Source of the DNA: Octopus vulgaris
Lineage: Eukaryota
Direction: 5' to 3'
Assembly (NCBI GenBank): GCA_951406725.2
Contig: OX597831.1
Span: 46,934,001 to 46,998,000, forward strand
DNA length: 64,000 nt
The translations under genes were made by a program, and so were the position numbers. Below, piece by piece: positions 12,200-59,095 of this stretch (position 1 is the first letter of the stretch; each line of letters starts with the position of its first letter). The notes beneath the pieces were generated by a model. The model had not been told where the DNA came from and did not search any database. It worked only from the letters and a program-made list of their open reading frames with translations.

Positions 12200-15100
12200 A
12201 TTTCTACTATAGGCACACGGCCTGAAATTGGAGGGAAGGGGATAATCGATTGCATCAACTCCAGTGTTTTACTGGTACTTAATTTATCAACCCCCAGAAA
12301 GGATGAAAGGCAAAGTCGACCTCGGCGGAATTTGAACTCGGAACGTAAAGACAGACGAAATTTCTTTACTACCCACAAGCGGCTAAATACAGAGGGTGCG
12401 AATAAGAACAGACAAACGGATTAAGTCGATTATATCGACCCCAGTGCGTAACTAGTACTTATTTAATCGACCCCGAAAGGATGAAAGGAAAAGTCGACCT
12501 TGGCGGAATTTGAACTCAGAACGTAACGGCAGACGAAATACCTATTTTTTTACTACCCACAAGGGGCTAAACATAGAGTGAACAGACAAGGACAGACAAA
12601 TGGATTAAGACGATTACATCGACGCCAGTGTGTAACTGGTACTTAATTTATCTACCCCCAGAAAGGATGAAAGGCAAAGTCGACCTCGGCGGAATTTTAA
12701 ACTCAGAACCTAGTGGCAGACGAATTACCTATTTCTTTACTACCCACAAGGGGCTAAACATAGAGGGGACAAACAAGGTCAGACAAACAGATTAAGACGA
12801 TTACATCGATCCCAGTGCGTAACTGGTACTTATTTAATCGACCCCGAAAGGATGAAAGGCAAAGTCGACCTCGGCGGAATTTGAACTCAGAACGTAACGG
12901 CAGACGAAATATTTATTTCCTTACTACCCACAAGGGCTAAACACAGAGAGGACAAATAAGGACAGACAAACGGATTAATTCGATTATATCGACCCCAGTG
13001 CGTAACTGGTACTTATTTAATCGACCCCGAAAGGATGAAAGGAAAAGTCGGCCTTGGCGGAATTTGAACTCAGAACGTAGCGGCAGATGAAATACCTATT
13101 TCTTTACTGCCCACAAGGGGCTACACACAGAGGGGACAGACAAGGACAGACAAAGGGATTAAGTCGATTACATCGACCCCAGTGCGTAACTGGTACTTAT
13201 TTAATCGACCCCGAAAGGATGAAAGGCAAATTCGACCTCAGCGGAATTTGAACTCAGAACGTAACGGCAGACGAAATACCTATTTCTTTACTACCCACAA
13301 GGGGCTAAACATAGAAGGGACAAACAAGGTCAGACAAACGGATTAAGACGATTACATCGATCCCAGTGCGTAACTGGTACTTATTTAATCGACCCCAAAA
13401 GGATGAAAGGCAAAGTAACCTTGGCGGAATTTGAACTCAGAACGTAGCGGCAGACGAAATATCTATTTCTTTACTACCCACAAGGGACTAAACACAGAGC
13501 AGAGAGGACAAATAAGGACAGACAAACGGATTAATTCGATTATATCGACCCAGTGCGTAACTGGTACTTATTTAATCGACCCCGAAAGGATGAAAGGAGA
13601 AGTCGACCTTGGCGGAATTTAAACTCAGAACGTAGCGGCAGACGAAATATCTATTTCTTTACTACCCACAAGGGGATACACACAGAGGGGACAGACAAGG
13701 ACAGACAAAGGGATTAAGTCGATTACATCGACGCCAGTGCGTAACTGGTACTTAATTTATCGACCCCGAAAGGATGAAAGGAAAAGTCGACCTTGGCGGA
13801 ATTTGAACTCAGAACGTAACGGCAGACGAAATACCTATTTTTTTACTACCCACAAGGGGCTAAACATAGAGTGAACAAACAAGGACAGACAAAAGGATTA
13901 AGACAATTACATCGACGTCAGTGTGTAACTGGTACTTAATTTATCTACCCCCAGAAAGGATGAAAGGCAAAGTCGACCTCGGCGGAATTTAAACTCAGAA
14001 CCTAGTGGCAGACGAATTACCTATTTCTTTACTACCCACAAGGGGCTAAACATAGAGGGGACAAACAAGGTCAGACAAACAGATTAAGACGATTACATCG
14101 ATCCCAGTGCGTAACTGGTACTTATTTAATCGACCCCGAAAGGATGAAAGGCAAAGTCGACCTCGGCGGAATTTGAACTCAGAACGTAACGGCAGACGAA
14201 ATATTTATTTCCTTACTACCCACAAGGGCTAAACACAGAGAGGACAAATAAGGACAGACAAACGGATTAATTCGATTATATCGACCCCAGTGCGTAACTG
14301 GTACTTATTTAATCGACCCCGAAAGGATGAAAGGAAAAGTCGACCTTGGCGGAATTTGAACTCAGAACGTAGCGGCAGATGAAATACCTATTTCTTTACT
14401 GCCCACAAGGGGCTACACACAGAGGGGACAGACAAGGACAGACAAAGGGATTAAGTCGATTACATCGACCCCAGTGCGTAACTGGTACTTATTTAATCGA
14501 CCCCGAAAGGATGAAAGGCAAATTCGACCTCAGCGGAATTTGAACTCAGAACGTAACGGCAGACGAAATACCTATTTCTTTACTACCCACAAGGGGCTAA
14601 ACATAGAAGGGACAAACAAGGTCAGACAAACGGATTAAGACGATTACATCGATCCCAGTGCGTAACTGGTACTTATTTAATCGACCCCAAAAGGATGAAA
14701 GGCAAAGTCGACCTTGGCGGAATTTGAACTCAGAACGTAGCGGCAGACGAAATATCTATTTCTTTACTACCCACAAGGGGCTAAACATAGAGCAGAGAGG
14801 ACAAATAAGGACAGACAAACGGATTAATTCGATTATATCGACCCAGTGCGTAACTGGTACTTATTTAATCGACCCCGAAAGGATGAAAGGAAAAGTCGAC
14901 CTTGGCGGAATTTAAACTCAGAACGTAGCGGCAGACGAAATATCTATTTCTTTACTACCCACAAGGGGATACACACAGAGGGGACAGACAAGGACAGACA
15001 AAGGGATTAATTCGATTACATCGACGCCAGTGCGGAACTGGTACTTAATTTATCGACCCCGAAAGGATGAAAGGCAAAGTCGACCTCGACGGAATTTAAA

Positions 15101-15357
15101 CTCAGAACGTAGCGGCAGACGAAATACCTATTTCTTTACTACCCACAAGGGGCTACACCGAGGGGACAGACAAGGACAGACAAACAGATTAAGTCGATTA
15201 CATCGACGCCAGTGCGTAACTGGTACTTAATTTATCGACCCCGAAAGGATAAAAGGCAAAGTCGACCTCGGCGGAATTTGAACTCAGAACGTAACGGCAG
15301 CCGAAATACTGCTAAGCATTCCGGCTGGCGTGCTAACGATTCTGCCAGCTCGCCGCC
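12200..15357 (-). repeat. Tandem concatemer of SINE family B bodies (17 x about 185 bp) with one head and one tail
   Basis: 17 recurrences of the ggatgaaagg..aagtcgacct motif; single tRNA head ggcggcgagctggcagaa at 15357; distinct tail at about 12200. Confidence 0.92.
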
Positions 15358-19264: not shown

Positions 19265-20227
19265 TTCACCCACCTTTTTTGAAACTTTCACGAGACAAAA
19301 CCTGCCTTTCCATTCTCACCTTCCTTTTCAAGTGGTACTTGAAAACGTTGACGAGCAATTGGCCTGGGAGGTAGGTGTTTGTCTCTAATCCTTTCGCTCG
19401 AGTCCACCACACACATTCTTTCACCATGGCCACCAGTACGCTGAAGACTGCTTTGCCTTCCCGGTTGAGGGAAGGTGGCGGAGCAATTGTCATAATAGAC
19501 TCGGCCGACAGGCAGACTCGTCCCACACGTGACAGCAGCCGTTCGGCATAAGCCCACAGGTCCGAAATGGTTGGACACTGCACGAGTGCGTGCAGAACGG
19601 TTTCATCGCTCTGACCGCATCTCGGGCAAGTCGGTCCGGCATTTCTCGAACCGTGCCTGTAGAGCTTATCCCAAACGGGTAATGCTTCTCGATAGCACTG
19701 TCAAGCCAGGGATCTTTGATGATTGACCATAGGTCCCGGCCCGAAAGTTTTCCTGAACAGGCGGGTCAGGTGTCCCTCTTCGACGCCCGGATTCTGCCCG
19801 AGAACGTCGTCGCACCTCCCCTCCACTAATTCTCTATAGAACGCCTTTGTTGTAATGAAGTCGCACAAGTTTGGTCCCGGACGGCAGAGTTGCTTGAGAG
19901 CAACGTGACACACGCGGTGCCATTCGCTTAGCCTCGGTCTCTGTTTGATCTACGACTGCGGTTCAGCTAAGGAGACGAGCTGCGAGAAAGCACGCCACAC
20001 AAACAGCGACCACACCTGTTCACCGTTGTCTATGAAGCGCCGGAGATGTCGCAGTCTCAGCGCATGCCTGCGCATCATCAACCATGGCATGCCTAGCCCT
20101 CCATTTAGCAGGTGTTGACAGCAAATGGATCGCCCAACCATCGGAACGCTCCCTTCCACATGAAGCGGAAGAGTAAGCGTTCTAGTTTGGTGATGGTAGG
20201 GTCGGGACAAGGCACGACGGTCAGACG

Positions 20228-20757: not shown

Positions 20758-21095
20758 TGGCGCATGGCTCAGTGGTTAGAGCGTCGAGCTTACGATCGTG
20801 AGGTTGTGAGCTCGAATCCCGGACGGGGCTGCGTGTTGTGTTCTTGAGCAAGGCACTTTATTTCACGTTGCTCCAGTTCACTCAGCTGTAGAAATGAGTT
20901 GCGACGTCACAGGTGCCAAGCTGTATCGGCCCTTGCCTTTCCCTTGGACAACATCGGTGACGTGGAGAGGGGAGGCCGGTATGCATGGGCGACTGCTGGT
21001 CTTCCATAAAACAACCTTGCCCAGACTTGTGCCTCAGAGGGTATCTCTCTAGGTGCAAACCCATGGTCAGTGCCTGACCGATGGGGATCTTTACC

Positions 21096-21097: not shown

Positions 21098-21140
<43 letters not shown>

Positions 21141-21415
21141 TAAGAGAGTGGTCACTATATTGCTCACTCTAGCACCAGTTAATCCAAAAGGTTTCAACCA
21201 CGAAAATACATGTTTCCCATGATCTAATTCTCTCACCCTTATTAATTAATTATAATTATGCTGCATTTATTTCTAAATGCTGTATTTGTTTTCCGTGAAA
21301 GTTTGGCGCGCCGTTGGTTGGGGCATTTGAATTATAACGTCGGATGTAATCAATTGAACCACACGCGTATTTATCGTTATGGTAAAATCTGGCGTGTGAT
21401 TGAGTGGATTTCATC

Positions 21416-21510
21416 CAGATAGTCTTGGCTGACGAGCTACAAATGGATTTTTTGTAAGTAATATTACATTTAATTCATTAATAGCGAAACAATTGTCCCA
21501 AAATAATCTG
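21416..21510 (+). ncRNA. Type I hammerhead ribozyme, copy 1 (predicted cleavage after C21497)
   Basis: Stem I UUGG/CCAA (extends to CAGAU/AUCUG), CUGACGA core, stem II GCUA/UAGC, GAAA, stem III AC-AAUU-GU, GUC triplet. Confidence 0.9.
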
Positions 21511-21949
21511 TATTTTTGTTATTTTTTATTTGCCCTGTCCGTGTGAGCTAACAATCGTACTGACTTTCATGGGAAACATGTATTTTCGTGGTTGAAACCT
21601 TTTGGATTAACTGGTGCTAGAGTGAGCAATATAGTGACCACTCTCTTATATTTATTTTGTAAAAATATTATAATATGTTATAAAATATTATAATAATCCA
21701 GGTTTCTCGTAGCACTAGGCCACTTGGTGTTGAATAAATATACTATTAAATTAGTATCTAATTCTCTCACCCTTATTAATTAATTATAATTATGCTGCAT
21801 TTATTTCTAAATGCTGTATTTGTTTTCCGTGAAAGTTTGGCGCGCTGTTGGTTGGGGCATTTGAATTATAACGTCGGATGTAATCAATTGAACCACACGC
21901 GTATTTATCGTTATGGTAAAATCTGGCGTGTGATTGAGTGGATTTCATC

Positions 21950-22044
21950 CAGATAGTCTTGGCTGACGAGCTACAAATGGATTTTTTGTAAGTAATATTA
22001 CATTTAATTCATTAATAGCGAAACAATTGTCCCAAAATAATCTG
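21950..22044 (+). ncRNA. Type I hammerhead ribozyme, copy 2 (cleavage after 22031)
   Basis: Identical to copy 1, +534. Confidence 0.9.
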
Positions 22045-22483
22045 TATTTTTGTTATTTTTTATTTGCCCTGTCCGTGTGAGCTAACAATCGTACTGACTT
22101 TCATGGGAAACATGTATTTTCGTGGTTGAAACCTTTTGGATTAACTGGTGCTAGAGTGAGCAATATAGTGACCACTCTCTTATATTTATTTTGTAAAAAT
22201 ATTATAATATGTTATAAAATATTATAATAATCCAGGTTTCTCGTAGCACTAGGCCACTTGGTGTTGAATAAATATACTATTAAATTAGTATCTAATTCTC
22301 TCACCCTTATTAATTAATTATAATTATGCTGCATTTATTTCTAAATGCTGTATTTGTTTTCCGTGAAAGTTTGGCGCGCTGTTGGTTGGGGCATTTGAAT
22401 TATAACGTCGGATGTAATCAATTGAACCACACGCGTATTTATCGTTATGGTAAAATCTGGCGTGTGATTGAGTGGATTTCATC

Positions 22484-22578
22484 CAGATAGTCTTGGCTGA
22501 CGAGCTACAAATGGATTTTTTGTAAGTAATATTACATTTAATTCATTAATAGCGAAACAATTGTCCCAAAATAATCTG
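22484..22578 (+). ncRNA. Type I hammerhead ribozyme, copy 3 (cleavage after 22565)
   Basis: Identical to copy 1, +1068. Confidence 0.9.
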
Positions 22579-23017
22579 TATTTTTGTTATTTTTTATTTG
22601 CCCTGTCCGTGTGAGCTAACAATCGTACTGACTTTCATGGGAAACATGTATTTTCGTGGTTGAAACCTTTTGGATTAACTGGTGCTAGAGTGAGCAATAT
22701 AGTGACCACTCTCTTATATTTATTTTGTAAAAATATTATAATATGTTATAAAATATTATAATAATCCAGGTTTCTCGTAGCACTAGGCCACTTGGTGTTG
22801 AATAAATATACTATTAAATTAGTATCTAATTCTCTCACCCTTATTAATTAATTATAATTATGCTGCATTTATTTCTAAATGCTGTATTTGTTTTCCGTGA
22901 AAGTTTGGCGCGCTGTTGGTTGGGGCATTTGAATTATAACGTCGGATGTAATCAATTGAACCACACGCGTATTTATCGTTATGGTAAAATCTGGCGTGTG
23001 ATTGAGTGGATTTCATC

Positions 23018-23112
23018 CAGATAGTCTTGGCTGACGAGCTACAAATGGATTTTTTGTAAGTAATATTACATTTAATTCATTAATAGCGAAACAATTGTCC
23101 CAAAATAATCTG
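23018..23112 (+). ncRNA. Type I hammerhead ribozyme, copy 4 (cleavage after 23099)
   Basis: Identical to copy 1, +1602. Confidence 0.9.
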
Positions 23113-23406
23113 TATTTTTGTTATTTTTTATTTGCCCTGTCCGTGTGAGCTAACAATCGTACTGACTTTCATGGGAAACATGTATTTTCGTGGTTGAAAC
23201 CTTTTGGATTAACTGGTGCTAGAGTGAGCAATATAGTGACCACTCTCTTATATTTATTTTGTAAAAATATTATAATATGTTATAAAATATTATAATAATC
23301 CAGGTTTCTCGTAGCACTAGGCCACTTGGTGTTGAATAAATATACTATTAAATTAGTATCTAATTCTCTCACCCTTATTAATTAATTATATATATATATA
23401 TGTATG

Positions 23407-23438
<32 letters not shown>

Positions 23439-43784: not shown

Positions 43785-45042
43785 TATTAGTTCGTCAAGT
43801 ATGAATTTTGTAGAAAAGAAAAAAAAAGTTTGCTAATGTTTTATAAATGCAAGGAATAGTTTTATTCATCAAAGTAGGCGTCCATATTGTCAATACACTT
43901 TTGCCATTTCAGCGGTAGCTTGTCCAGCCTGGAACTGTAAAAGCCTCACAATCTAGAATCAATAAAATCTTGGAAGGCCTGTTTTACAACATCGTCGGAA
44001 TTAAATTTTTTTCCCATCAAAAGTTATCCAAAATGGAAGGAGTGGTAATCAGTGGGGACAAGATCAGGTGAGTATGGTAGATGATGGAGAACTTCCAACT
44101 CCAACAACTGTAGTTTCGCCAATGTCATTTTTGCTATATGTGGTCTGGCGTTGTCTTGCTATAAAATAGGGCTGGATCTGTTGACTAATCTAGGCTGGGT
44201 TTTTTTTTTTTTTTTGTAAGTTTCTGCATCATTTGGTCCAGTTGGCTGCAGTATACTTCGGTCGTGATTGATGAGCCAGGTTTAATAAAATAATGGATTA
44301 CACCTGTGAGAGACCACCAAACACACACTGTCAGTTTCTTTTTATAAATTTTGCTTTTTGGAATGTGTTTTGATGGCTCGTCTTAGTCCAACCATTGTTG
44401 TATTGGATCCATTTCTCATCACATTACAATTCGATTAAAAAATGATTCATTTTTGTGACGAGAAAGTAGCATAATGCAGGCTTCCAAACGTTGCTGTTTC
44501 TGATTTTCATTGAGTTCATGTGGAACCCACTTATCCAACTTTTTCACTTTACCGATTTGAACTAGGTGAGTCAATATTGTTTGCTTGCTAACACCAAATA
44601 ACAACGATAATTTACGGGCACTTTGAAATGGATCTGACACGACGGTGGCTTTGAGTTCGTCATTATCCACGTTTGTTTCTGGTCGACCGCGTTGCTCATT
44701 TCTGAGGTCAAAGTTACCAGGACGAAATTTTGCAAGCAATTTGTATAACACTAGAATGAAATACTCTATTAATATTCCGAGCTGTCTGTGAAGCTGTATT
44801 TCCAAGAAAGAACTCATATTTCAAAACTGTACGAATTTTCAATTTATCCATCTCTAAACAAAAATAGCAAAAAACGATTTATAAATACTTTATAAAGCGA
44901 AAATGAGTTAGAATAAAGAAATAGATGTGTCAGCTTTCTAACAAAAAATAAAGATTGTCAAAATATAATAATGGCACGAAATGAGCAGCTGTCAAAATTT
45001 ACCATATACTTTACAACAAATTTCATACTTGACGACCTAATA
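43785..45042 (-). mobile_element. Mariner DNA transposon, full length, decayed transposase
   Basis: TIRs tattagttcgtcaagtatgaattttg / caaatttcatacttgacgacctaata with TA ends; WVPHEL and YSPDLVPTDY motifs; about 1.26 kb. Confidence 0.92.
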
Positions 45043-47789: not shown

Positions 47790-48365
47790 GCGGCTAGCTG
47801 GCAGAAACGTTAGCACACCGGGCGAAATGCGTAGCCGTATTTCGTCTGCTGCCACGTTCTGAGTTCAAATTCCGCCAAGGTCGACTTTGCTTTTCATCCT
47901 TTCGGGGTCGATTAAATAAGTACCAGTTACGCACTGGGTTCGATATAATTGACTTAAACCGTTTGTCTGTCCTTGTTTGTCCTCTCTGTGTTTAGCCCCT
48001 TGTGGGTAGTAAAGAAATAGGTATTTCGTTTGCCGTTACGTTCTGAGTTCAAATTCCGCCGAGGTTGTCTTTGCTTTTCATCATTTCGGGGTCGATTAAA
48101 TAAGTACCCGTTACGCACTGGGGTCGATATAATCGACTTAATCCCTTTGTCTGTCCTTGTTTATCCACTCTATGTTTAGTCCCTTGTGGGTAGTAAAGAA
48201 ATAGGTATTTCGTCTTTCTTTATGTTCTGAATTCAAATTCTGCCGAGGTCGACTTTGCCTTTCATCCTTTCGGGGTCGATAAATTAAGTACCAGTTACGG
48301 ACTGGGGTCGATCTGATTGACTGGTCCCCTCCCCAAAAATTTCAGGCCTTGTGCGTAGAATAGAA
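47790..48365 (+). mobile_element. SINE family B trimer
   Basis: One head, three bodies and the alternative tail. Confidence 0.88.
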
Positions 48366-52424: not shown

Positions 52425-52812
52425 TTTCTATTATAGGCACAAGGTCTGAAATTTTGGGGGAGAGGATGAGTCGATTACGTCGACCCCCAGTGTGCAACTG
52501 GTGCTTAATTTATCGACCCCGAAAGAATGAAAGGCAAAGTCGACCTCGGCGGAATTCGAACTCAGAACGTGAGGACAGACGAAATACCTATTTCTTTACT
52601 ACCCACAAGGGGCTAAATACAGAGAGGACAAACAAGGACTGACAAACGATTATATCGACCCCAGTGCGTAACTGGTACTTATTTAATCGACCCCGAAAGG
52701 ATGAAAGGCAAAGTCGACCTCGGCTGAATTTGAACTCAGAACGTAGTGGCAGACGAAATGCCGCGAAGCATTTCGCCCGGCGTGCTAACGATTCTGCCAG
52801 CTCGCTGCCTTA
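52425..52812 (-). mobile_element. SINE family B dimer
   Basis: Same head-body-body-tail layout as the 12.2-15.4 kb array. Confidence 0.85.
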
Positions 52813-54399: not shown

Positions 54400-54800
54400 C
54401 AAGGCTCTATCTTTGGAATGTAGTTAACACAAACAAATTCACATTTGGAACTTGAGAAAAGCCTTGCATATTTTTACTATTCCACTCACCGATTGCACAT
54501 CAATCAGCCGATCAATTTCTCTTTCCGAAAATCACAGTTTATCCAGCTTCTCTTTTAAGCATTTACTAATAAAAACCTAATGCTCAAATTATTCGTAATC
54601 TGGATATAGAAGCTGGAGGTTTCGAAGCAGTTGTCCATGGATATCCTCTTTTTCTTTGATTTTCAGAAATATTTATATCTGCAGGGCAGCTAAACTCTAT
54701 GATGTTACATACTTTCACGCCACTGTCCCAAGCAACAATATCCGGCCTGTTATGCTAATATTTGACAGGTTTTGATGGGAATATTCCACCAGTATTCCTT
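54400..54800 (-). mobile_element. Non-LTR retrotransposon REL endonuclease fragment (R4/NeSL/CRE-type), decayed
   Basis: Minus strand reads KEYWWNIP...HNRPDIVAWDSGVKVCNIIEFSCPADIN (RPD...E.SCP.D motif). Confidence 0.7.
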
Positions 54801-56368
54801 AAGTTGGTATGTACGTATGTATGTATGTATGTATTATCACTAGCAATTTTATTAGTACCCTTGCGGATATTGAATTTTAGTGCGATGCTGTTTAACAGAT
54901 CTTCCTTTATCATTCTGACATCTTCCAGTGTGTCCTTTACAGCGAGTATATCGTCTACATATCTAGCGTATATCGTATGCTTATGTCTTAGAACTATGTT
55001 GTTTTCAGTTACGGACTCATATAATGCTGCTACATTGAACCTTATTAGTGAACCTATGGCAACTATTCTCGTGTTTATATAATTTGCCGTGTGGCGGACA
55101 CAATGATAAAGTCTCCAATATACAAAAAGCAGGATGGTCTTGGCCTGTACGCCTTTTTATCACAGGTCTGCTCGATCAAATTTAATCAAGGCTAAACAGC
55201 TCAAACAGCCTCTATGCAGTAGGTGTATCTGCTAGATGTTTCAGCCAGAACTCTCGAAATCACAGCCTATCAGAATGTAGTTCCTAATATATAAAAAGAT
55301 ACATGGTCACGACTGAAAGTTTTCATCACAGATGCCAAAATTTGAAACTGATATTGCTAATGACACACATCAATAGTAATCTACTGAGTAAATGGCTGCA
55401 ACACAACGACATATAAATGAAAATATCTTAACATCAACAAATGTCATGACAGAAAAAGCAAGATTGGGAGAGAAAGTAATAAAATATGAAATTTGCAAAC
55501 ATTATTCTCTTCACACTAAATTAACACTCTTTTCAAAATTCTCTTTTCAAAATATATTGACGTAATAATTGTGCTGAAGCATAATGTATTATCTAGAAAA
55601 CCTCCTTCAAGTTATGAATGAAGGAAACTGAAGTTACAATTATCTCGCTTCATTTGTTTGAAAACGCCCAGTATTTCTGAAAAAGAATGTTTTTACCCAG
55701 TAACGAATAAAGTAGGACACGTTTCGTAACACTCTAATCTTATACTAGAACTAATCAAAAATATATATGAAACTAGAAAAACCATTCAGCTTTGATATTT
55801 GAAGTTGTGTGAAACACTAGATATTACACCACTAATTAACATCTGATTATTTGTTAATAAGTTTTATTTATTTATTCATTACCCTTTGTAAATACTTTGA
55901 CTTTTAATTCATAAATCGATGTCAACATGGAAAGGACAGAAAAACTAATCGAGTAATTTCGTAATTAAGCTTTGGTCAGGAAAATGTTTACAATTGGTTG
56001 TGTATTGAATAAGTTAATTATTATGTACGTTTATGAATGTTTAACATGCAACTGTTGATTAACCCCCAGGTGAGCCCTGGTCGAACAAATCTATAATCAA
56101 AGATTCAAGCAGTGACAATCCCGATATATTTTAACAAAATAAATACCAACAGTCATTTTTTTACCTATTTTAACTTTCAATTTGCTATTACCCGAAGCAC
56201 AGAAATGTTGTTAACATGTTGGATTTGCATGACTTTTTATGAATTTTGATGTTTTAAACCCTATGGTAATTTCCTTGCGTCATATGTTTTCCAAAATCTT
56301 ACGCAACCACCAAGAAATATACTAAAAGATCTATATCAATCCACTCTCAAATAAAAAAAAAACTGACG

Positions 56369-58036: not shown

Positions 58037-59095
58037 AGGGAACTGTTTTGGGTCCGCTACTCTTCATAATTTATGTAAACGACCTTTCCAGTGTCGTACA
58101 TCACTGCAAAGTGAAAATATTCGCTGATGACACTAAGCTCCAGCAAATCGTCAATGAAGAAGCAGACCGAACTCAACTCCAGTCTGACCTATATGCTGTG
58201 AGTCAATGGGCAGACAGAAACAAAATGCAACTGAATGAGGGAAAATTTGAGCTGATGCATTTTGGAAGAAATTCCTCACTAAAACAACCATACTCTCTTC
58301 CTTCAGGGGAACCGCTCACAGCCTCTAACAATATCAGAGACCTGGGTGTAATTGTTGATGACGATCTCAGTTGGAGTGCACACATCAACAAGAAGGTCGA
58401 TACAGCTCGTAGGATGAGTTCCTGGATCTTAAGAACTTTCCGGTCCAGAGAACAAGGTGTCATCATACCACTTTTTTCATCCTTTGTACGGCCACACCTC
58501 GAATACTGCTGCCCACTGTGGTCTCCTCACACAAGACAAAACATCTCCAGAATTGAGTCACCCCAGAGGGCTCTCACTAAACAAATTGAAGGCATGGCTG
58601 CTCTCGACTATTGGGATCGCCTTAAAGCCTTGAAACTTTACTCCCTCCAGCGTCGCCGTGAGCGGTACATCATTTGTACGATGTGGAAAATATACCGCCA
58701 ACTTTGCCCAAACGACCTAAACATTAGCTTCAAGGTTCATCCGAGACTTGGACCACGGGCTATACGTCCGCTGCCAAATTCAAGATCACAACATACATGT
58801 ACACTGCAACATAATTTCTTTTCCTCAACAGGCCCTGCCCTATTTAACATTGTCCCGAGGAGATCAAAGAGGAAAAGGATCCCATCAACTTCAAACAGAG
58901 TCTGGATGGATTCCTTCAAAGAATACCAGACAAGCCACCCATAATTGGATACAACTCACCCAACAAGAACTCACTACTTGAACAAAACTTGACTTAAACA
59001 GGATTCGAATAATCCTATCAGGTGGTGCTATTAAGTTAGACATGGCCTGGACCAATCTCTGGTCGAAACATATCTAAGTTTTATCTAAGTTTTAT
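58037..59095 (+). mobile_element. 5'-truncated CR1/Jockey-type LINE embedded in (TA)n tracts
   Basis: RT motifs [14 protein letters not shown] and IFADD, RDLGVI, RPHLEY, SLQRRRER; tail (tatctaagttt)x2. Confidence 0.92.
58048..58944 (+). pseudogene. Partial LINE ORF2 reverse transcriptase (298 aa, no true start, frameshift near 58858)
   Basis: FADD catalytic motif; C-terminus leaves the frame of the paralog at 50344-50667 after FNIVP. Confidence 0.88.

Follow-up and report, generated by a model that had tools for sequence, protein, structure and literature searches.

A young hammerhead retrozyme family of Octopus vulgaris whose two-armed insertions in (TA)n point to Penelope-like mobilization

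The window, a 64-kb (64,000-nucleotide) stretch of Octopus vulgaris DNA, contains a tandem array that a preliminary description had proposed as a retrozyme built of near-identical 534-bp units with no long open reading frame. We confirmed the period, which covers 4.06 units as assembled, and the near-identity of the units, whose sole mismatch is the C/T difference at 21312. The unit has a GC content of 32%, and neighboring units abut directly, with no LTR arrangement. A protein-coding unit was ruled out, as the longest stop-free frame across three joined units amounts to 72 amino acids, in line with the earlier claim. The limits first given, 21222–23390, hold for the forward array but miss an exact inverted copy of part of the unit at 21132–21222 and the (TA)n microsatellite present on both outer flanks. 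The inverted arm and the (TA)n on both outer sides set the extent of the element at 21132–23390 and indicate that it consists of two head-to-head arms inside a microsatellite (Table 1).

The two arms overlap by 1 nt (21222). The inverted arm ends 3' at what we call the inner site, adjoining the (TA)n; the forward arm starts at an arbitrary unit position and ends 3' at the tail site. The stretch between the two sites forms a tail that is present on the forward arm and absent from the inverted arm. Both sites lie within the predicted monomer, at about nt 161 and nt 291. There was no sign of a host function for this locus, which is one of many.

Table 1. Features of the element and its target in the window (q, numbering on the unit at 21756–22289)
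Feature	Position	Strand	Remarks
(TA)n microsatellite, target left side	21099–21131	.	
Inverted arm	21132–21222	−	91 bp, exactly unit positions 346–436
Forward arm	21222–23390	+	4.06 head-to-tail 534-bp units
Unit 1	21222–21755	+	one private substitution at 21312
Unit 2	21756–22289	+	reference unit (q1–q534)
Unit 3	22290–22823	+	
Unit 4	22824–23357	+	
Type I hammerhead 1	21422–21504	+	core from 21429; predicted cleavage after C21497; helix I 21422–21428 with 21498–21504; palindromic 3-bp helix III
Type I hammerhead 2	21956–22038	+	core from 21963; predicted cleavage after C22031
Type I hammerhead 3	22490–22572	+	core from 22497; predicted cleavage after C22565
Type I hammerhead 4	23024–23106	+	core from 23031; predicted cleavage after C23099
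534-nt monomers, predicted (inferred)	21498–22031, 22032–22565, 22566–23099	+	
Tail, ~130 nt	23261–23390	+	inner end site (q437) to tail end site (q33)
(TA)n microsatellite, target right side	23387–23437	.	

Our type I hammerhead descriptor matched exactly four sites on both strands of the 64-kb window, one per unit, with cleavage positions as initially described; none of 2,000 dinucleotide shuffles of the unit gave a match. The hammerhead search suggested at the outset was productive with our own descriptor but not with Rfam, which returned no match in the window at gathering thresholds. The description of the motifs as intact is correct for the core nucleotides but not for helix I, which in the window copy forms four pairs followed by a C-A mismatch; a T that restores all seven pairs is carried by 16 sampled loci. 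The fold of the monomer has a z-score of −6.3, with no equally good fold in 100 shuffles, and the active ribozyme fold is not among the minimum-energy local or circular folds of the window copy. Helix III has three pairs with a palindromic loop. This short palindromic form is of the type predicted to need a dimer (PMC4209133, available sections), and in the available text of 10.64898/2026.07.22.740005 cleavage in vitro was seen for only one of nine predicted dimers of frog retrozymes. Type I topology, a palindromic helix III, and a G10.1-C11.1 pair are common to the window motif and the PLE-type and canonical metazoan hammerheads in the portion of PMC4209133 at hand; unlike these, the window motif lacks an additional nucleotide separating core position 9 from helix II and has a long extended helix II region.

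We found that a 20-mer of the ribozyme has 2,403 exact copies in the genome, compared with none for a control, and that the 534-bp unit has 937 candidate places, of which the best 40 were scored; the full-length units listed are 96–100% identical. The first 100 matches of the 20-mer fall in 32 loci, giving an estimate of ~800–1,200 loci. We read 68 loci, comprising the 40 best matches including the window, which were picked for near-identity to the window unit, and 28 from the first 75 Mb of contig 1. These matches establish dispersed arrays rather than a single genomic locus, as had been expected. Other loci have up to 13 units per arm. Only 70 of 91,773 sites differ within arrays, indicating that the insertions are recent. 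In addition, 20 public runs from nine studies, with four organism labels, each contain at least half of the unit's words.

The tandem, non-coding, 32% GC unit with one type I hammerhead and hundreds of dispersed young loci agree with the retrozyme identity originally put forward, and, judged on features at the DNA level, membership of the family in the animal non-LTR retrozymes is supported. In the sections of PMC7229834 and 10.64898/2026.07.22.740005 available, coral, mussel, axolotl, and vertebrate retrozymes share with it non-coding, low-GC tandem units; one type I hammerhead per unit, thousands of motif copies, a short palindromic helix III, and Penelope-like elements (PLEs) in the same genome are further common features of animal non-LTR retrozymes in both. 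The preliminary description took the unit to be longer than those of known metazoan retrozymes; it does exceed the 170–400 nt found in the accessible part of PMC7229834 but lies inside the 51–972 bp in that of 10.64898/2026.07.22.740005. RNA and cleavage are on record for published retrozymes in these texts, whereas the window family is known from DNA. Literature searches found no paper on a cephalopod retrozyme, although the supplementary lists of retrozyme papers could hold one.

The genome also contains an older sister family with a 490-bp unit (L067:7868–8430; L139–L158), for which we found 3,718 candidates with 83–95% identity among the copies listed. Its inner and tail ends are homologous to those of the window family and its build is two-armed, with a tail of ~65–75 nt. 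The sister family has a GUU cleavage triplet and a U-U at the first helix II pair, unlike the hammerheads in the available sections of PMC4209133. Its helix I has a wholly different sequence with the pairing retained. Across 15 sequences of the two families, six of the seven helix I pairs change on both sides, and 92.6% of helix I cells pair, compared with 31–50% in slid controls; this covariation comes largely from the one split that separates the families, and among five measures one failed to exceed the shuffles (419/500). The hammerhead core is intact in 226 of 236 units, and the free position 7 varies between C, A, and G. These data support structural selection on a predicted type I hammerhead in the family. 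Ribozyme activity of the family is likely on these sequence grounds, and cleavage of the window copy is a prediction.

The ends of the insertions proved highly regular. Among 38 recognizable inner ends, 26 lie at q437 (range 433–440), and 38 of 45 tail ends lie at q33, placing the two sites ~130 nt apart. The 3' ends touch (TA)4 in 99 of 107 cases, compared with 8% of random windows. Two arms are present in 39 of the 68 loci, of which 36 combine an inner with a tail end and three combine an inner end with another or degraded one; in none of the 39 is the same end site used on both arms. The 29 one-armed loci divide into 15 with a tail end and 14 with an inner end. By contrast with these 3' ends, fixed at two sites, the 5' ends are scattered (97 ends in 62 loci, with six complex loci left out of the count), so that the circularly permuted start points expected in the preliminary description were found at one end of the arms and not at the other. 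At the head-to-head junction, the arms overlap by 1–7 nt in 24 of 35 loci, as a raw count.

An inverted copy, insertion in (TA)n, and 3' ends fixed at two sites all point to Penelope-like machinery. Together with the one-sided tail, this anatomy makes PLE mobilization well supported, and we regard a PLE-type mobilization of the family as very highly probable. Truncated tandems, an inverted copy, and a one-sided tail are described for endonuclease-bearing PLEs in the available portion of PMC8557442, where the Neptune, Hydra, and Naiad elements share with the window family 5'-truncated tandems, an inverted 5'-truncated copy, the one-sided tail, (TA)n, and a hammerhead, and where non-autonomous derivatives from Chlamys such as MRC1 form multicopy head-to-tail insertions. 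In contrast to the endonuclease-bearing elements of that text, the window family has no reading frame, and its tail is ~130 nt compared with a published 30–40 bp. In the available sections of PMC11167929, the purified protein of the Anolis Poseidon PLE cuts and extends both DNA strands, and reverse transcription initiates from a pair of internal RNA sites by which the tail is delimited; such a pair of sites and an AT-rich target are common to both systems. The Anolis sites, as described there, are not homologous to the target and are the same for both strands, whereas those of the window family have TA-like ends and the two arms never share a site (0/39).

To follow the template, we compared variants with q224–245 and q433–475 masked, which left 55 locus-fixed, 70 single-unit, and eight partly shared variants. 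Eleven locus-private variants, in five loci, are fixed on both arms, and the arms of one insertion agree at all 44 informative sites. A single haplotype thus runs through every unit of an insertion, whichever arm it belongs to. The tree, built from 45 loci after omission of the 23 of 68 without two-unit cover, needs 66 whole-locus changes. Only four single-unit variants recur in two loci; all are C>T or G>A and occur in different haplotype groups, and we therefore saw no inherited mosaic array. One haplotype per insertion, the 66 whole-locus changes, and the absence of an inherited unit mosaic argue for a one-unit bottleneck in the cycle. Arms of 11–13 units are star-like, with ~0.1% divergence.

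The arms also run through the predicted cleavage site, which 86 of 97 cross and 55 cross at least twice; a single 5' end of 97 lies at it, compared with two expected. Among the variants listed for the 40 best loci, no indel or substitution falls at the q276/q277 joint. A linear cleaved monomer copied without jumping was rejected as the usual template, given the 86 crossing arms. Haplotype and continuity data are explained most simply by a covalently closed monomer copied lap after lap, and the proposal that the array looks like a rolling-circle reverse transcript is thereby supported indirectly.

We therefore favor, as probable though with considerable room for doubt, a model in which this young, dispersed, non-coding family of type I hammerhead retrozymes was likely inserted in (TA)n by the enzyme of an autonomous PLE, with one circular monomer RNA likely serving as its template through successive laps begun at two fixed sites. 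The arrays would be transcribed, and the hammerheads, probably as dimers or aided by protein, would release 534-nt monomers that a host ligase would circularize, as in known retrozymes. A PLE endonuclease would then nick both strands of the (TA)n target, which itself is observed. Each nicked strand may prime reverse transcription, one at q437 and the other at q33; both of these sites end in a short TA-like stretch, which might base-pair with the target DNA. Synthesis of the two cDNAs would continue past the cleavage site of the same, presumably circular, template for as many as 13 laps before halting at random, consistent with the scattered 5' ends. Joining of the two 5' ends head to head would give the inverted and forward arms that we observe. 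In the window, the arm from the inner site would have halted after 91 nt and that from the tail site after 4.06 laps.

An alternative that we consider unlikely, but take seriously, keeps the two-site PLE insertion and uses an uncleaved linear multimer as the template, with short insertions re-expanded or homogenized in the DNA by unequal crossover or conversion, so that the ribozyme matters little. It is close to the local-amplification scenario in the available text of 10.64898/2026.07.22.740005. Insertion of the lizard PLE in vitro proceeds without ribozyme cleavage, with unprocessed RNA as the main substrate, and is equally good with a dead ribozyme (PMC11167929, available sections). The best fold of the window ribozyme is inactive, and DNA-level events do occur, as the eight partly shared variants, some adjacent or paired, attest. 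A double variant is found in two of 11 units of L036. In L037 and L044, adjacent units share variants. These patterns show DNA-level duplication or conversion in a few arrays. One unit of L044, a six-segment insertion, has the haplotype of another locus (355G, no 315G), by either a template switch or gene conversion. In L041, one variant is present in four of the 13 units, scattered among the rest, and is absent from every other copy that spans the site; misreading of the template during some of the laps, or conversion, could account for it. Fast local expansion just after insertion would also yield homogeneous arrays. Against a multimer template, however, the 66 changes on the 45-locus tree would need repeated one-unit bottlenecks, the recurrent single-unit variants number four with no inherited mosaic array, the longest arms are star-like, and helix I is maintained by compensatory change.

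Copying of one linear self-cleaved monomer, with the reverse transcriptase jumping from the 5' end to the 3' end on each lap and no covalent circle, would explain a single haplotype as well as a circle does, and both start sites lie inside the monomer. We nevertheless find it improbable, since jumps should gather 5' ends at the cleavage site and leave scars at the q276/q277 joint; the former holds for only one of 97 ends, and the variants listed for the 40 best loci include no scar at the joint.

Returning to the favored circular template, the partner enzyme is likely that of some autonomous PLE, and we searched the genome for candidates. It contains two young autonomous PLE families, the best copies of which are 99–100% identical. 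Family 1 (L109–L138) has a stop-free frame of at least 753 amino acids, ends ~45 nt apart, a (TA)n target, and one end of each kind in all five two-armed loci. Family 2 (L163–L187; L031:5584–7845) has a stop-free frame of 717 amino acids, ends 70 nt apart, a (TA)n target, and one end of each kind in nine of 10 two-armed loci. On the basis of motifs and a weak C-terminal GIY-YIG match, rather than of a tree, we provisionally label families 1 and 2 Neptune-like and Hydra-like, respectively; the label Naiad was dropped for family 2 because the endonuclease is C-terminal. In the 3' region of family 1, we read by eye a hammerhead-like motif that carries U3-A8 instead of C3-G8 and has a cleavage site that looks degenerate. 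Family 2 also has a hammerhead-like motif, in which core position 4 is C, and one of the family 2 copies lies within the (TA)n that adjoins the tail end of a retrozyme array.

For neither family does the sequence shared with the unit exceed chance. Family 1 has only a 23-nt stretch in common with it (E 0.21), family 2 only AT-rich noise, and a third, Neptune-like copy nothing notable. In local alignments of the 40-nt ends, the best uncorrected p value was 0.007 in 54 comparisons, between non-matching sites; the window family shows no similarity to the ends of any of the three autonomous families compared. Another possibility is that the unit is the pLTR of an as yet unseen autonomous PLE and the loci its 5'-truncated copies rather than an independent non-autonomous family. 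In the available text of 10.64898/2026.07.22.740005, frog retrozymes are homologous to pLTRs, and 24 of 57 families match Repbase, nearly all to PLEs; in the octopus genome, PLE-protein candidates number in the tens of thousands, and only ~80 were scored per search. On the other hand, none of the 68 loci has the unit joined in register to a PLE frame, and the PLE frames read near retrozyme loci are separate insertions with their own ends. A reading frame with reverse transcriptase and GIY-YIG endonuclease between pLTRs was found in 0/68 loci, and the family is thus not an autonomous PLE. Moreover, units succeed one another for as many as 13 laps, and the haplotype tree passes through arrays only. 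We consider a pLTR origin of this kind very improbable.

A plain satellite, or an artefact of the assembly, in which a ribozyme-like motif arose by chance might account for almost identical units, the lack of an Rfam match, and a unit count taken from the assembly alone, but we regard it as negligible in view of the motif's absence from 2,000 shuffles, the compensatory changes in helix I, the fixed ends, the target preference, the locus-private haplotypes on many contigs, and the 20 public runs of nine studies that hold at least half of the unit's words.

The retrozyme class and its link to PLEs are already in print. In the available sections of PMC7229834, the return of retrozymes to DNA is stated as open, with PLEs as a strong candidate, and tandem cDNA templated by a circle is drawn as a hypothesis; those of 10.64898/2026.07.22.740005 lean to local tandem expansion and say that the mechanism remains to be found. 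The published link consists, in these portions, of co-occurrence and pLTR homology, whereas here it consists of the scars left by insertion, and no homologue of a pLTR was identified. The available text of both papers is silent on two-armed insertions, on a pair of fixed ends, on (TA)n as a target, and on one haplotype per insertion. The strict pairing of one end of each kind, a tail of 130 nt, and evidence for one haplotype are likewise absent from the sections of the retrozyme and PLE texts compared. The family is young enough to retain its scars, namely two exact start sites, the target, the one-of-each rule, and a one-template signature. With two intact PLE proteins in the same genome and an existing assay, it makes retrozyme mobilization directly testable. 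If the favored model is true, it would provide an animal case of a circular RNA copied into DNA by rolling-circle, twin-primed reverse transcription, and the inverted-plus-tandem shape of PLE insertions would be explained.

We also looked for traces of RNA. Of the public runs listed as containing the unit, none is recorded as RNA. Three runs presumed to be RNA have contigs, which do not show RNA ends, that span most of the unit. In these contigs, A>G changes (q110, 113, 116) and T>C changes form small clusters that the genomic copies examined lack or almost lack. Cephalopods of this lineage are heavy A-to-I editors. The clusters are hints of edited transcripts, not evidence for a circle, and a hint only, since each change comes from one or two contigs from other individuals or species. 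In the genome, locus-fixed variants comprise 15 A>G and 10 T>C (p = 0.068), variants in at most two loci seven and nine (p = 1), and parsimony changes 18 and 11 (p = 0.036, root-dependent); five of 10 sites recurrent under parsimony involve A>G. AT-to-GC transitions are commoner among locus-fixed (25/55) than among single-unit variants (12/70; p = 0.0008), an excess that might also result from selection acting on RNA structure or from misassigned polarity.

A bolder extension, which we offer tentatively and would not yet back, is that every insertion preserves, as a fossil, one circular RNA molecule that two coupled reverse transcriptases of a Penelope-type dimer read simultaneously in rolling-circle fashion, with start sites 130 nt apart, one for each strand of the (TA)n nick. 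The one-of-each rule might then be general to (TA)n-targeting PLEs, and changes on the circle, A-to-I edits included, might be written into the genome as whole-array variants.

Several minor observations concern related sequences. A 3-nt deletion at q449–451 recurs in single units of at least seven loci (L034, L038, L041, L043, L044, L052, L060); it sits in an AT-rich palindrome and is likely a slippage hot spot. A third non-coding hammerhead family (L098:2700–4050 and L065:7640–8300) is two-armed and (TA)n-flanked, with helices I and III resembling those of the window family and a tail of ~120 nt, and several more hammerhead families appeared in the motif scan of the loci.

Finally, the window contains other repeats. 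A common dispersed repeat with a tRNA-like head (20759–21087) lies just left of the target microsatellite. A 184-bp tandem array, which we take to be a SINE-derived satellite, occurs at 12246–15309 and 47837–48312 (16.6 copies, 89% matches), and the same repeat is also dispersed, for example at 52470–52810. A decayed frame at 54755–55156 (−) with an RT-like YVDD motif, possibly an old PLE, matched no Pfam family and has fragmentary relatives only in the genome. By eye, we noticed a mariner-like transposase fragment with no Pfam match at 44419–44820 (−). Fragments of a zf-RVT domain and of a LINE reverse transcriptase (RVT_1) are located at 19266–19700 (−) and 58039–58944 (+), respectively.
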